A stretch of DNA of 34,737 nt from Candidatus Hydrogenedentota bacterium (GCA_034669905.1 JAXMOL010000069.1:1-34737), one strand, 5' to 3'; counted from the stretch's first letter, positions 29,245-34,737 are shown. Notes: generated by a model not told the origin, from the letters alone. A program made the numbers and translations.

Positions 29245-29396
29245 CGTCTGGCCAGGTATCCGATTTGTAATCGGATCCTGCTGTAATTTTATGGGATAAC
29301 GCGCGCCCCTCTGCGGAGGGGCGTGTGTCTTCGGGAGCCGCCTCTTGCAGCGGCTTTTGCGTTCAGCAAGGAAGTAATTACGTCGTGTCGGGACTG

Positions 29397-30134
29397 ATGA
29401 AACTCAAGGGACAGACCGCCCTCGTTACCGGGGGGGCCAAACGTTTGGGGGCGGCCGTAGTCCGTGCCTTGGCGGCCGAGGGGGTGAACGGCGTCATCCA
29501 CTACCGAAATTCCCAGGCGGAGGCCGAAGCGTTGGCCCGGGAACTACGTGAGACGGGGGTAGAGGCATTCACCGTGCAGGGGGACCTGGCAGAGCCCGCG
29601 ACCGCCCGACGGGTATGGACCGAGGCCGTGGAAGTGGCCGGTCCCATCGACATCCTCATCAACAGTGCGTCCATTTTTCCCGAGGGGGGATTGGATTCGT
29701 TGAACGAGCAGACGCTGACGGAGAATATGAACGTCAACGCCTTGTCGCCCTTCCACCTGTCGCAATGCATGGCCGAAGCGGAGCAGTCGGGCGTCATCAT
29801 CAATTTCATTGACACCATGGTGCGTGACTATGACAAGCGGCATGTTCCCTATCATCTGAGCAAAAAGGTGTTGCACGATCTGACGCGGATGATGGCGGTG
29901 GAGTATGCGCCGAATATACGCGTGAACGCCGTGGCGCCGGGCCTGGTGCTCCCTCCGGAAGGCAAGGATGAATCCTATCTCGAGGGGCTGAAGCACTCCA
30001 ATTTACTGCAATCTTACGGCTGTGCGGAACAAATCGCCCATGCGGTGTTGTTTCTGTTGACCAATACCTTTGTTACCGGCCAGACCATTTACATAGACGG
30101 CGGCCGCAATTTACGGGGTTCCATGTATGAGTAA
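29397..30134 (+). CDS. folM: SDR pteridine/dihydromonapterin reductase (FolM/PTR1-like)
   Basis: TGGAKRLG (PTR1-type Arg), IHYRNS, INSASIF, YHLSK, VNAVAPG, IDGGR; first gene of the pterin operon. Confidence 0.8.
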   Translation: MKLKGQTALVTGGAKRLGAAVVRALAAEGVNGVIHYRNSQAEAEALARELRETGVEAFTVQGDLAEPATARRVWTEAVEVAGPIDILINSASIFPEGGLDSLNEQTLTENMNVNALSPFHLSQCMAEAEQSGVIINFIDTMVRDYDKRHVPYHLSKKVLHDLTRMMAVEYAPNIRVNAVAPGLVLPPEGKDESYLEGLKHSNLLQSYGCAEQIAHAVLFLLTNTFVTGQTIYIDGGRNLRGSMYE

Positions 30135-30507
30135 GGCGTTAGACAGGATTTATATACGCGATCTTCGGCTCCGTTGTATCGTCGGAATCTATCCGGAAGA
30201 GCGAACCAACAGGCAGGATGTGCTGATCAACGTGGTCATGTGGTGTGATTTGCGGCGGGCGGCGGAAACCGATCAGATAGAAGATACGGTCAATTATAAG
30301 TTTGTAAAGAAAGGTATTACGGCCCTCGTGGAGGGCTCGGACTATCTCCTCATCGAGCGGATGGCGGGCGCTATCGCCGATCTCTGCCTGGAGGAGGCCG
30401 GCGTCGCGCAGGTGCAAGTGACCGTAGACAAGCCCGGTGCCCTGCGATTTGCGCGGAGTGTGGCCGTGGAGATTACCCGAACCCGTGAGGGTAACCATGA
30501 CGGATAG
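30127..30507 (+). CDS. Dihydroneopterin aldolase / triphosphate epimerase (FolB/FolX family)
   Basis: IRDLRLRCIVGIYPEER..RQDV, DTVNY, LIE, DKPGALRFARSV. Confidence 0.9.
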   Translation: MSKALDRIYIRDLRLRCIVGIYPEERTNRQDVLINVVMWCDLRRAAETDQIEDTVNYKFVKKGITALVEGSDYLLIERMAGAIADLCLEEAGVAQVQVTVDKPGALRFARSVAVEITRTREGNHDG

Positions 30508-31027
30508 CCCGTTGGTCGTGGCCTTTGTGTCCGTGGCTGGAAATCTGGAGCCGGAACGGCATCTAGTTGCCGCCATGGAGGCGCTGGAGCAACAGGTGAC
30601 GATCACCGGCGTGTCCCGTTTTTTTCGGACGGCCGCTATTGGAAGACCCGAGCAGCCAGACTACCTGAACGGGGTCATAACAATTCGCACGGGCTTAGCC
30701 CCGGTGGCACTGAGAAACGAACTGTTACGGCCTATTGAGTCCCAGCTGGGGCGCCGTCGCAGCAGCGACCGTTATGCGGCCAGGCCCATTGACTTGGATT
30801 TATTACTCTATCACGACTTGGTGATAGCGGACGAAGAACTGACCCTGCCGGATCCAGATATTCTAACGCGCCCTTTTTTGAGCGCGGGCATACTGGACTT
30901 GGCTCCCCATATGAGGTTGCCGGGCGACGAGCAAGCGCTGCGGCAACGCGTGGATACCCGGGCTATGGCCAATCTTACGGTGGATAGGGCCCTTACCCAA
31001 CGACTCAAGGAGAGATTCATCCCATGA
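30497..31027 (+). CDS. folK: 6-hydroxymethyl-7,8-dihydropterin pyrophosphokinase
   Basis: [37 protein letters not shown]; start at ATG 30497. Confidence 0.88.
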
Positions 31028-31596
31028 ACCAGGAACGTATCGCCGCGCTGGTGCGCGAACTACTCATAGAGTTGGGGGAGGATCCCGACCGGGAAGGCTT
31101 ACAGAAAACGCCCGAACGGGTGGCCCGTGCGATGGACTTTCTCACCTCGGGCTATCGGCAGGATATCGACACCATCATCAATGGCGCGGTATTTGAAGCC
31201 GAATCGAACAATATGATTATCAGTCGTGATATCGAAATCTACAGCCTCTGCGAGCACCACATGCTGCCCTTTTTCGGCCGTTGCCATGTGGGCTATATCG
31301 CGGAAGAGAAGGTGTTGGGCCTGAGTAAGCTCGCGCGCATTGTGGATTTCTATGCGCGGCGCCTGCAGATTCAAGAGCGACTGACGGCGCAGATTGCCGA
31401 AGAAATCATGAACCAGACCCAGGCGGAAGGGGTGGGCGTGGTCATCGAATGCCAGCACCTCTGCAGCATGATGCGGGGCGTGGAGAAACAAAGCTCCGTC
31501 ATGACGACCTCCTCGGTGTTGGGAAGCTTCCGCGATGAAGCCGTAACCCGTCAGGAATTCATGGGCCTGCTCTCCCGGAGTCTACCGCCCATGTAG
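31024..31596 (+). CDS. folE: GTP cyclohydrolase I
   Basis: [49 protein letters not shown]. Confidence 0.96.
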
Positions 31597-31662: not shown

Positions 31663-31738
31663 GGGGCTGTAGCTCAGTTGGTAGAGTGCTGCGTTCGCAA
31701 TGCAGAGGTCAGGAGTTCGATCCTCCTCAGCTCCACCA
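31663..31738 (+). tRNA. tRNA-Ala (anticodon CGC)
   Basis: 76-nt cloverleaf: acceptor GGGGCTG/CAGCTCC with G3:U70, anticodon arm CTGCG-TTCGCAA-TGCAG, T-loop TTCGATC, encoded CCA. Confidence 0.97.
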
Positions 31739-31747
31739 TGTAAGTTC

Positions 31748-31789
31748 TTGCCGCGCAAGGGTTTAGGGAAACCAGCCTTTGCGCGGCAA
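31748..31789. repeat. Inverted repeat immediately after the tRNA
   Basis: TTGCCGCGCAAGGG / CCTTTGCGCGGCAA (11 bp perfect plus 3 bp with one G:T). Confidence 0.75.
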
Positions 31790-31806
31790 TTCTGTATTTA
31801 GGGGCC

Positions 31807-31827
31807 GTTATCATTTTGTTATCATTT
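31807..31827. repeat. Tandem 10-bp direct repeat GTTATCATTT (11-bp period), candidate integrase arm-type sites
   Basis: GTTATCATTT at 31807-31816 and 31818-31827, about 70-90 bp from the tRNA 3' end. Confidence 0.6.
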
Positions 31828-31828
31828 C

Positions 31829-32149
31829 TTACCCGCCCGCCGTCCGTAGGTGCCGCAGCTCCGCACGCGCGCTTTCCAGCTGCTTTTCCAGCGTCGCCAC
31901 CTTCGCCGCTAACGTGTCGATATTCTCGGCCTTGCTGTACCCTTGCTGGGGTTGCGTTCGTGCCTTGTGGGGCATCCTCGGGCCTTTATTTTGAGCGAAT
32001 AGGCTGCGCGGTAGCGGTTTCGGCTCTGTGCGCCGCTTTGCGGGCTTTCCGCGCGCCGGTGTCGGCTTTCGGGTCGGTCGCGGGCCGTAGCAGAGCCTAC
32101 GGAATACTTCAATATCGCCTATGCGCGTAATGCGCCAGTATGTTTCCAT
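31829..32149 (-). CDS. Hypothetical basic protein with a C-terminal coiled coil (106 aa)
   Basis: Start METYW after GGAG; Arg/Lys/Pro-rich middle; heptad tail IDTLAAKVATLEKQLESARAELRHL. Confidence 0.55.
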   Translation of the reverse strand: METYWRITRIGDIEVFRRLCYGPRPTRKPTPARGKPAKRRTEPKPLPRSLFAQNKGPRMPHKARTQPQQGYSKAENIDTLAAKVATLEKQLESARAELRHLRTAGG

Positions 32150-32167
32150 TGGGTGTGCTCCGTGGTT

Positions 32168-32206
32168 AAAAAAAGCCCCGCCACTCTGGAGAAGGAGTGA
32201 CGGGGC
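32168..32206 (-). terminator. Intrinsic terminator ending the capsid operon
   Basis: Minus strand GCCCCGTCACTC-8nt-GAGTGGCGGGGC-TTTTTTT. Confidence 0.88.
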
Positions 32207-32259
32207 GCACGCAGAAAACCCGACTGGCATAAGAGGCCGTATGCCGGGACTTCTAAAAC

Positions 32260-32700
32260 TTATGCGCTCAGGGCACTAACGGCCTGCGCGCTGGCAATCA
32301 CGGTAGCGTCCTGCGTAACAGGTGCCGCGTCTGCATTGCCCTGAATGGCGATGATTCCACCCACTACCGCGTCAGCCGTGCCACGGGTCAATACAGCCCG
32401 TGCATACCGACGAAGCGGGTAGGTGAGTTCCACGGCCATCAGCTTGCTATCCGCATCAGATGCGCCAGCGGTAAACGTCGTGGTCGCCGTCGTGGCTTCC
32501 ATGTCGCTGTTGTCGCTCTCGTCGCCGTGCTGAATGGTGAGGGTCAACACGCTGGTGTCGGTGACGTCACCCAGGAGGGTGGCGAAGGTCACCGTATCGA
32601 AGCCCTTCATGTCCAGCGTGTCGCTGGTCAGCGTGGTCTGTCCAGCCGCCGCAGCCGCTTCCGCCACACACAACTTATTGTTTTCGAGAAAGTTATTCAT
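32260..32700 (-). CDS. Putative capsid cement/decoration protein
   Basis: 146-aa Thr/Ala-rich protein with beta-strand patterning directly after the capsid gene; LDMKGFDTVTF..IQHGD..RRYAR pattern; RBS AAAGG. Confidence 0.55.
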   Translation of the reverse strand: MNNFLENNKLCVAEAAAAAGQTTLTSDTLDMKGFDTVTFATLLGDVTDTSVLTLTIQHGDESDNSDMEATTATTTFTAGASDADSKLMAVELTYPLRRYARAVLTRGTADAVVGGIIAIQGNADAAPVTQDATVIASAQAVSALSA

Positions 32701-32712
32701 GGGGTGCCTTTC

Positions 32713-33846
32713 TTAGCTCAAACCGCTGAGCTGGCAGAATGCTGCTTCATGGGTGGCGAATACGTCCATGGGAAGGATGACGCGGAATTGCACCATATCC
32801 TTATTGAACACGCCGTCACCGTGGAAGCTGGTATCTAGCCGCACGCCAGTAGGTGAGACGGCATAGAATAGTTTCGAGAAATCCCCGACAAACGCGAGCG
32901 CGTCGGTGGCCTTCGTCGTGGTGTACTTCGGGAGTGCGTCATACCCACGGGGCGGGTTCAGATACTGCCCGTCGTTCGAGTCCTTGAGAATAGCCAATTC
33001 GTAGTCCGTGCCGGGACTCCAAATCGCGCCGGTAGGCTCGTGGAACGCATTGCGCACGGTCTTTACCGCGTTCAGGATGTCGTCATAATTAACGTCACCA
33101 ACGCCGGTAATTGAGCCGATGCCGTCCATATTTGCGAGTCCGGTAGGCTCTTCGCCCGCGCCATCGCCCAGGAGGGCCACACGGTCCATTTCCGCGCCGA
33201 GCGCGTTCTGTAGCGTCTGCTGAATAAGCTGTGCCGCGTTGTCGCCGTACTCGATAAGCTCACGCGATGCACTAACAAGGCAGGTGATTTTCCGGAGTCG
33301 GATAGACTGAATTCCAAAGGTCATCTCGGATTCAGGAATGGTGCCGCCTTCCGGCGTAAACTGCACGTCCGGGTCCGTGAGCAGTTTGGCCATACGGCCC
33401 TGATTATATCCGTCCGGTAAAACCACGGTCTGTGCACCCGCCGCCGTTACGACGGACTTGGCACGGGCAAGGTCGATAGCCCCCCGCGATGCCGGGGTAG
33501 TCAGCAGGTACCCGCCCGTCGAGTCTTGGCCGGTGACATGCGCCTTGGTGTCAAGGTCGGGGTCATCCTTGCCGGTGATAATAGACTTAATGAGCCGCCC
33601 AAGTACGGGGTCCGTGCTCGGTGCGGTCAGCCGGTCGCCCTTCGCCAGGCAGGTAATTTCTCGCCCGTCTTCCATCTTCCAGCGCATGCCGGTCGTGTGG
33701 GCCTTCTGGGCCGTCGTGGTGGGGGTGTTCAGCTTGGCCTCGAGTTCGTCGACACGGTCGGCGGTCTTGTCCAGCTTGGTAATCTGCTCTTCTTTGAATT
33801 CGGAAAAGTCTTTTCCGATATCCTCGATTAGGGTGTCAATTTCCAC
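32713..33846 (-). CDS. Phage major capsid protein, HK97 fold, with N-terminal delta/scaffold domain
   Basis: Coiled-coil N-terminus, TK-AHVTGQDSTGGYLL, PEGGTIPES, SRELI, LLGDGAGEEPTGL, LKDSNDGQYL, GDFS, FNKDMVQFR, HEAAF; GTG start after AAGGA. Confidence 0.9.
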   Translation of the reverse strand: MEIDTLIEDIGKDFSEFKEEQITKLDKTADRVDELEAKLNTPTTTAQKAHTTGMRWKMEDGREITCLAKGDRLTAPSTDPVLGRLIKSIITGKDDPDLDTKAHVTGQDSTGGYLLTTPASRGAIDLARAKSVVTAAGAQTVVLPDGYNQGRMAKLLTDPDVQFTPEGGTIPESEMTFGIQSIRLRKITCLVSASRELIEYGDNAAQLIQQTLQNALGAEMDRVALLGDGAGEEPTGLANMDGIGSITGVGDVNYDDILNAVKTVRNAFHEPTGAIWSPGTDYELAILKDSNDGQYLNPPRGYDALPKYTTTKATDALAFVGDFSKLFYAVSPTGVRLDTSFHGDGVFNKDMVQFRVILPMDVFATHEAAFCQLSGLS

Positions 33847-34010
33847 TGAATCATTTCCTTGAAATACATAACGATGTGTTTGAAGCTCCCGTCTATAGCG
33901 TCTCGCTCAGCGATTGCTTTGTATCCATCAGCCAAGAGGGCCATGGATTGTTTACGGGAAAGCCCAACGTCTCGCAGTGCTCTCTCGATTTCTCTTTTCC
34001 CGGGGGTCAT
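33828..34010 (-). CDS. 60-aa protein resembling only the C-terminal extension of HK97-type prohead proteases
   Basis: KREIERALRDVGLSRKQSMALLADGYKAIAERDA resembles the 'REFE..LRDAGFSR..A..G..A..RDA' protease tail as I recall it; own RBS (GGAG) and ATGA overlap. Confidence 0.6.
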   Translation of the reverse strand: MTPGKREIERALRDVGLSRKQSMALLADGYKAIAERDAIDGSFKHIVMYFKEMIQWKLTP

Positions 34011-34225
34011 GACTCCGCCCGAAATGCTTTGCTTGCCTCACGGAATGAGGCCAATACTTTTTCCGCCGCTTCCTCGTGGCGTGCCACCAGTCGCGCATGG
34101 GTGTTTATGCCTAAAAGAATCCGGATGAATTCCGAGACGGTCACGCCGTGCCCGTGGGCCGTGTGCTTGAGTTGTTCCGCGTCTTCGGTGGGAATCCGGA
34201 ATGTGATCATGCTTGTTTCGCTCAT
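34007..34225 (-). CDS. Ribbon-helix-helix (CopG/Arc-like) DNA-binding protein
   Basis: MITFRIPTEDAEQLKHTAHGHGVTVSEFIRILL beta-alpha-alpha pattern. Confidence 0.72.
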   Translation of the reverse strand: MSETSMITFRIPTEDAEQLKHTAHGHGVTVSEFIRILLGINTHARLVARHEEAAEKVLASFREASKAFRAES

Positions 34226-34737
34226 GCCATAACCGCCGCTCTGTTGGTTGTGTTGTCTGCAATTTGCCGGAGTAGGTCTACCTGTTGCCGGTCACTGTTT
34301 CGCTCCATGGAATACGTGGGTCCACGAAAGGAGGTAAGGCGCGCGCTACCGGTGCCAGCCTCGCCCATGTCTTGGTTAATCGTCGCCTGTTTGGACTTCT
34401 CAGCGGTAATAGCCTTCTCGGTGTCCAGTCGGTCACTTGCCGCCGTATTAGCGAAGTTATCCGCCTTGGCTTGCTGCTCGTGCATATAGGCTTGGAATCG
34501 GTCGCCTAGGCCTTTACCGTCGCGCCGTCGGCCTGCTATAGCGTCTATCTTGGCCTGCGCCTCTGCCGCTTCCGCTGCGTAGCCGTCCGCCATCCGCCCG
34601 AAGCTTACACTCTCATTCTCCGCGCCGCCCGCCGCGTCAAGTAGGCGTTTAGCCTCTGCGCGGTGTTCCGGCGGGATGCCGCTAAGAATACGCTTTTCAG
34701 CCGTCCGCTTGCCGCGCTCTTCGGAGCCGGTGAGGAT
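34222..34737 (-). CDS. Partial helical protein, possibly the C-terminus of a tail tape-measure-like protein
   Basis: Frame stays open from 34222 to the window end (adds ILTGSEERGKR...SFGR before MADG); Ala/Glu/Gln-rich; ends QQVDLLRQIADNT. Confidence 0.45.
   Translation of the reverse strand: MLTGSEERGKRTAEKRILSGIPPEHRAEAKRLLDAAGGAENESVSFGRMADGYAAEAAEAQAKIDAIAGRRRDGKGLGDRFQAYMHEQQAKADNFANTAASDRLDTEKAITAEKSKQATINQDMGEAGTGSARLTSFRGPTYSMERNSDRQQVDLLRQIADNTTNRAAVMA

Follow-up and report, generated by a model that had tools for sequence, protein, structure and literature searches.

The SatelliteFinder model defines phage-inducible chromosomal islands (PICIs) by five core components, one of them a capsid gene unaccompanied by portal or protease, and it forbids tail genes (PMC10085698). 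A capsid gene is present in 21 of 29 reference PICIs (PMC10111431), EcCICFT073 has both capsid and head-decoration genes (PMC6092414), and the Ccm protein of SaPIbov5 functions without a protease of its own (PMC8569155). PICI-like tycheposons carry a capsid or small terminase (TerS) gene (bioRxiv 2020.12.28.424599), and capsid-forming PICIs (cf-PICIs) encode a whole head set (bioRxiv 10.1101/2022.09.08.507074). Satellite tape measures were reported in 2025–26 (PMC12987554, PMC12822802). They are found in some cf-PICIs and in PLE11, where the satellite's own tape measure lets it evade its anti-helper factor (PMC12987554), and in EPIPs, for which TerS, capsid and tape measure are described within 11 kb in a text that also says that EPIPs lack capsid proteins (PMC12822802). 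Here we describe an element at the right end of a 34,737-bp stretch of a Candidatus Hydrogenedentota genome (GCA_034669905.1, JAXMOL010000069.1). This stretch, the window, is the entire contig C69 of the source genome bin G000, a metagenome-assembled genome that is 96% complete (G, L, C and X numbers are our labels for genomes, loci, contigs and runs). We put at roughly three in four the probability that the window holds the far end of a tRNA-Ala-integrated, PICI-like satellite of about 9–10 kb, for which an HK97-type tailed phage would act as the mobilising helper.

Ends of the element

The integration target is an intact tRNA-Ala(CGC) gene (31663..31738, plus strand, identified with ARAGORN). 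Its 3' end contributes to a 47-bp att core (31694..31740, plus strand) that is identical to a sequence on contig C24 (G000:C24, near 103.85–103.90 kb). This second copy of the tRNA 3' end is located 3 kb from the end of C24, beside a 413-residue tyrosine integrase (PF00589 and PF13356) that is followed, inside the att copy, by a 72-residue HTH_17 protein and a Prim-Pol primase (PF09250, E 7e-25) broken off at the contig end. The HTH_17 protein is an AlpA-like candidate (HTH_17 E 6e-4, below the cut-off; phrog_66 E 5e-4), as judged with general profiles rather than SatelliteFinder's own, and no repressor-sized gene is found within the integrase, HTH_17 and Prim-Pol run. A first-pass annotation of the window had predicted a duplicated tRNA 3' end, an integrase and a primase, and all three are thus located on C24. 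The two contigs are linked by the shared att core, not by continuous sequence. The assembled part of the element amounts to 6,026 bp, with all genes in one direction. Outside the att copy, C24 contains a terminator resembling that after the empty tRNA-Ala site in genome G004. Also directly outside (L001:3965-5803) is a C-terminal fragment of an RHS-repeat protein with an apparent intein-like domain and a toxin-like tip.

A sister element is integrated at tRNA-Leu(CAA), with its two ends on contigs C53 and C70 (G000:C53:49604-50763 and G000:C70:1-3094). The C53 end contains a copy of the cement-gene region (92% identical), and C70 starts with a primase that is 86% identical (nonsynonymous to synonymous rate ratio, dN/dS, 0.19), a different integrase (34% identity) and a 60-bp att copy. 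Since C24 and C70 end at the point where the two elements converge, their shared middle has probably collapsed. In run X1 the capsid module has a depth of 9.6 and in run X2 of 9.5, compared to about 5–6 on the flank, which fits two collapsed copies; this evidence is weak, as depth and joint checks on the four runs were made with contigs only. Contigs bridging the middle between C69 and C24 were found neither in the bin nor among the contigs of the four runs. The size of the element, a proposed check, can therefore be given for the assembled 6,026 bp and not for the full span, as the middle is unassembled. To the assembled part may be added 0.95 kb for the missing stretch of the tape measure and about 1.2 kb for that of the primase (estimated from a 758-residue paralogue), so that 1–2 kb would be left over if a size of 9–10 kb holds.

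Capsid operon

The HK97-fold major capsid protein (32713..33846, minus strand; 377 residues; PF05065 E 7e-23, phrog_10 E 2e-34) has an N-terminal helical extension, which is likely a delta domain. It shares 22–28% sequence identity with capsids of GenBank phages (best 15 listed of 54 records) and is distant from the capsid of the phage contig L209 described below. Neither a portal nor a catalytic protease is located directly before the capsid gene in the window. The next gene (32260..32700, minus strand) encodes a 146-residue protein with a jelly-roll fold in its AlphaFold2 model (pLDDT 92.7), which, because of this predicted fold and its position after the capsid gene, is likely a capsid cement or decoration protein. 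Structural comparison with VIA-align retrieved the phage capsid chains 9hz8_G (Z 8.2), 8cjz_B (Z 7.3) and 3j4u_H (Z 7.2); unrelated jelly rolls score as high (best Z 10.3, an unrelated protease domain), and no single family is picked out. The protein has 500 homologues, and its gene lies 3' of the capsid gene in the inspected phage and island loci. Used as single queries, the capsid, the full tape measure and the cement-like protein returned no close viral record. The operon is closed by an intrinsic-terminator-like hairpin (32175..32206, minus strand; 12 pairs, 7 U; z −4.8) that is 437 bp from the tRNA gene, is more stable than all of 200 shuffles and is kept, with small changes, in the sister copy.

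The last 171 codons of a further minus-strand gene, open at the contig end (34222..34737), encode a helical protein that is 81% identical to residues 316–486 of P0176 (486 residues), which in turn matches phrog_9483 (E 1.7e-38). By this homology, the partial open reading frame (ORF) is a tail tape-measure C-terminus. The best viral relatives of the tape measure, taken from the 80 loci kept, are the full phage contigs L209 (48% identity over 478 residues) and L210/L211 (42%), all with large terminase (TerL), portal, protease and capsid genes; L209 was also confirmed to have a head-tail adaptor, a tail tube and a chaperone. L209 is used below as a stand-in for the helper and is not an established helper. 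A shortened tape measure was ruled out (486 residues, compared to 488 in L209), and with equal length the tail length would not be retuned. Variants of the tape-measure gene in run X2 fall mostly at third codon positions (19 of 29). Whereas more genes of the tail region come after the tape measure in L209 and L210, the next gene in this element is one for a 72-residue ribbon-helix-helix (RHH) protein (34007..34225, minus strand). This protein is likely a regulator, with Pfam RHH-type matches between E 5e-5 and 2e-3, all below the cut-off; for comparison, an Arc-like gene precedes the portal gene in the tRNA-Leu island of G008.

Between the RHH and capsid genes is a free-standing 60-residue ORF (33828..34010, minus strand) that corresponds to an HK97-type prohead protease's C-terminal tail and lacks the catalytic domain. 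It shares 67% identity over 36 residues with the tail of the L209 protease, matches phrog_22327 (E 2e-10), and aligns with the end of the prohead-protease gene of SfI, ST64B and YeP1 (among 25 of 32 records listed). Free-standing look-alikes occur in clusters of 71–314 members. At both junctions of the RHH gene, with the tape-measure gene and with the 60-residue ORF, start and stop overlap by 4 bases, and a GG-rich site lies upstream. The protease tail of HK97 reportedly directs the protease to the capsid (work by Duda in 2013). The tape measure (48% identity) and the protease tail (67%) both match a single siphophage lineage and the capsid does not; this speaks for an action on procapsids of the helper, whether as decoy or adaptor, and the free protease tail may be a decoy. 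A predicted complex between the 60-residue protein and a pair of capsid fragments (residues 1–110) scored 0.01, which counts neither way.

The minus-strand operon listed in the first-pass annotation (helical ORF, RHH gene, 60-residue ORF, HK97 capsid and cement-like gene) is accordingly all in place, the helical ORF is the suspected tape measure, the strong terminator agrees with the estimated distance of about 430 bp from the tRNA, and the lack of a portal and full protease before the capsid was correctly recognized.

Islands with related capsids

Matches to the capsid profile were obtained in 9 of 135 genomes of the same phylum, 7 of 401 of the class Phycisphaerae and 9 of 401 of the class Planctomycetia (thresholds differ between searches). 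None was found among 401 alphaproteobacterial genomes at E <= 1e-60, yet clade proteins carry Marivita and Parvibaculaceae names. A FastTree phylogeny of 104 sequences, in which the phage capsids are a subset of those fetched, places the capsid in a clade of 44 tips (support 0.90), 18 of which lack readable context. The island loci were found with the same capsid profile and the clade is thus partly due to construction; the evidence lies in the genomic context.

Sixteen clade islands have boundaries marked by two att copies or by a direct repeat on their flanks; one measures 5,948 bp and the other 15 span 9,160–10,242 bp. TerL is absent from all 16, as scored with local profiles and PHROG scans, and a portal is found in two, both in G008 and one of them at the same tRNA-Ala site. 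TerS is present in at least 6/16, a tape measure in 4/16 (L062, G107:C125, L311 and L315), and the cement family of the 146-residue protein in 3/16, with a different 240-residue gene in its place in two others; an integrase was not recognised in the islands of G191 and G292. The complete 9.9-kb island L062 combines integrase, primase, TerS, capsid, cement and tape measure, and capsid and tape measure are also paired in the incomplete members G338, L032, L314 and L316. The best matches of the tape measures are spread over four PHROG families, and this suggests that capture took place repeatedly. Outside the clade, portal and TerL are located within 7 kb of 28 of 60 capsids. The same folE-tRNA-Ala site is occupied by a related 9.3-kb island in G008 (integrase 55% identical) and is empty in G004. 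Both G008 islands (L025:4839-14259 and L028:7305-16710, 9.3 kb each) contain TerS, portal and capsid without TerL or protease, a layout between those of PICIs and cf-PICIs. A satellite with its own capsid that takes portal, protease and tail from a helper, as first suggested, is therefore in keeping with complete relatives that are 9–10 kb islands without TerL. The recommended search for the gene order in other genomes gave the 16 att-bounded islands for the capsid clade and no protease tail in the islands examined.

In two further loci, L198:1-7020 (G074) and L179:5493-8629 (G108), which are integrase or primase islands, the replication genes are immediately followed by a tape measure; after it, at the contig end in G074, comes the start of a ClpP-type protease.

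Comparison with described satellites

The element resembles Gram-negative PICIs (EcCICFT073 and PmCI172; SatelliteFinder type A) in its integrase, candidate AlpA-like regulator, primase, portal-less capsid and single gene direction; EcCICFT073 also has a head-decoration gene, and the median PICI size is 9.5 kb. It differs from them in its tape measure, free protease tail and separate HK97-type capsid clade, and TerS is not seen, which may reflect the gap. The Ccm protein of SaPIbov5, which makes small heads, likewise comes from a satellite and is an HK97 capsid homologue; it has a delta domain, and no protease or portal of its own accompanies it (PMC8569155). The present element adds a cement gene, a tape measure and the protease tail. 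EPIPs of Mycolicibacterium (PMC12822802), compared by their published description, are similar in size (about 11 kb) and have capsid and tape measure together in a single satellite, along with TerS. They have a serine integrase, scaffold, head-tail adaptor and stopper and induce the helper, whereas the integrase here is a tyrosine recombinase accompanied by AlpA-like, primase and cement-like genes, and adaptor and stopper are not seen in the assembled part, which places the element outside the EPIP definition. PLE11 of Vibrio cholerae has a satellite tape measure that was shown to enter chimeric tails (PMC12987554). PLEs use the capsid of the helper; their own additions are a tail chaperone and a baseplate hub, neither of which is seen here, and its own capsid separates the element from the PLE definition. 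The cf-PICIs share integrase, primase and an own capsid with it, and its HTH_17 protein is a candidate for their regulator; their protease, portal, head-tail connectors, HNH, TerS and TerL are all lacking from the assembled 6 kb. VEIMEs were ruled out as a match, being described as without capsid genes (PMC9618062).

The element would work like a capsid-encoding PICI, with an integrase and att sites, a primase-replicase and a capsid gene, yet its tape-measure gene conflicts with the exclusion of tail genes in the PICI model, whose tail profiles may or may not cover tape measures. The proposal of a new satellite type is not sustained, because a capsid without portal or protease is a PICI core component, standard in the Gram-negative members, and satellite tape measures have been published. 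Searches of the openly accessible literature showed no description of the island family or of a free protease tail in a satellite, and Extended Data Fig. 10 of the PLE11 paper or the SatelliteFinder tables may contain such elements.

Proposed function and alternative explanations

The element is a real and probably intact mobile element. The sequence shows that both of its ends bear att copies, that its genes run in one direction, and that it has genes for capsid, cement-like protein, protease tail, RHH protein and tape measure. A PICI-like satellite is favoured because the 47-bp att core is common to C69 and C24 and has integrase, HTH_17 and Prim-Pol genes next to it, because the sister at tRNA-Leu(CAA) has the same two ends, because 15 of the 16 clade islands are of 9.2–10.2 kb and none of the 16 has TerL, and because the RHH gene, not tail genes, directly follows the tape measure.

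Several observations weigh against this interpretation. The middle is unassembled, and we infer the size, TerS and the lack of portal and TerL for this element. No helper is present in the bin, where portal, TerL, protease and TerS profiles are empty (the gap sequence being outside the bin); the suggested terminase check is accordingly answered for the bin and, through the at least 6/16 complete relatives with TerS, for the family, and not for the gap. Neither an excision joint nor strong amplification was seen in the four runs, so that the check for att-spanning reads, as far as contigs can answer it, listed no joint. P0176 is encoded on a 38.5-kb contig that could be a phage, and the protease tail was not found in the other islands examined. 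Two clade members have head genes: a portal and a protease-capsid fusion in L292 (2.8 kb), and a protease in L040. Finally, the PICI capsid gene is described as dispensable in EcCICFT073 (PMC6092414; PMC10111431).

In a PICI-like life cycle, infection by the helper would turn on the AlpA-like gene, and the element would excise and replicate with its own primase. Its capsid protein, alone or mixed with that of the helper (as for SaPIbov5 Ccm), would form a small head fitting about 10 kb, which would use the portal, protease and large terminase of the helper and be stabilised by the cement protein. The tape measure, acquired from the lineage of the helper and no different in length, would replace that of the helper in a chimeric tail, as in PLE11. 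In the least certain step, the free protease tail would bind helper or satellite procapsids and bias head assembly.

The best surviving alternative, although improbable, is a capsid-forming satellite whose gap holds portal, terminases and head-completion genes and which takes only the tail from its helper. Its own capsid and cement would suit such a satellite, as would a capsid distant from that of the candidate helper, which makes portal sharing harder; TerS and portal are present in the two G008 islands, portal and a protease-capsid fusion in L292, and tmp genes in some cf-PICIs (PMC12987554, Extended Data Fig. 10 legend). TerL, however, is found in none of the 16 complete clade members, the protease is reduced to its tail, and 1–2 kb would be free if the size is 9–10 kb. 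Still less probable is a prophage of full size, in two copies, whose late genes were rearranged and whose middle was lost from the bin. The gap may be long, a two-copy middle could drop out in binning, and L209 and L210, the closest matches for tape measure and protease tail, are full phages, but tail genes do not follow the tape measure, the left arm consists of integrase, AlpA-like gene and primase, the capsid clade is tied to 9–10 kb islands, and G008 has its 9.3-kb island at this very site. A decaying island or prophage remnant, with protease tail, capsid and tape measure out of use, is the least probable, since the fragmentary protease, the cement dN/dS of 0.59 between the sisters (from few changes) and the lack of signs of activity in four runs are set against assembled genes without stops or frameshifts, coupled starts with ribosome-binding sites, tape-measure variants that favour third positions, and two copies at different tRNAs with integrases 34% identical and near-identical capsid modules, which indicate recent spread or exchange.

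Extending the PICI-like satellite interpretation, we consider it possible, though rather unlikely, that 9–10 kb capsid satellites of Planctomycetota and of the host phylum repeatedly capture virion parts of their helpers (tape measures of at least four PHROG families, cement and portal), and that this member adds the capsid-targeting tail of the helper protease as a free peptide blocking helper head maturation, with a small head and a chimeric tail of its own being built meanwhile by the satellite.

These results extend capsid-encoding PICI-like satellites to lineages without an earlier report in the literature searched. Capsid, cement-like and tape-measure genes occur together without portal or TerL, and current detection models may reject such sets because tail genes are forbidden. 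The tight size range of 9.2–10.2 kb points to a shared small head, and the free protease tail, if its predicted role is true, would be a small candidate for a new interference with phage head maturation. The published precedents and the unassembled middle limit the weight of the finding.

Other features of the window and genome

The capsid module is not the terminal module of the element, as had been supposed: beyond the terminator, on the side of the att site, follows a basic 106-residue ORF (31829..32149, minus strand) with a GGAG site and a C-terminus that is likely a coiled coil. Its counterpart in the sister on C53 shares 87% identity with it (dN/dS 0.43), and it is without a PHROG match at E 1e-6. 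A 133-residue version was rejected, its extra first codons crossing the terminator and being frameshifted in the sister. The sister on C53 has an additional acidic 70-residue ORF after its 107-residue ORF, and the starts of the two are similar. A hairpin 3' of the tRNA (31748..31789, plus strand; an inverted repeat with z −5.9, 0/200 shuffles as stable) is supplied by the element and is likely a replacement terminator.

From position 32641 of the window, a contig found in all four runs matches the window, preceded by at least 255 other bases; this motif is absent from the bin, and the contig possibly derives from another organism or a third variant. Twelve spacers of one CRISPR array (G000:C47:33544-34348, 13 repeats) matched none of the fetched loci.

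The other integrase islands of G000, on C11, C2 and C15, contain no capsid match. The first is a 52-kb island between tRNA-Val att copies (G000:C11:3283-55120) with a related integrase (56%), an AlpA-like gene and a primase, and by eye with BREX-type and other apparent defence genes. The second, at tRNA-Met (G000:C2:229795-253247; att copy at C64:2431-2484), has an integrase and apparent type III restriction-modification genes. At a contig end, the third (G000:C15:141178-145312) encodes another integrase of the same family (54%), an HTH gene and a helicase-like gene. Directly upstream of the tRNA in the window (29325-31596), an ordinary folate/pterin operon (pteridine reductase, folB, folK, folE) was recognized by eye, and the folE-tRNA-Ala order is kept in six of the seven same-genus loci fetched.

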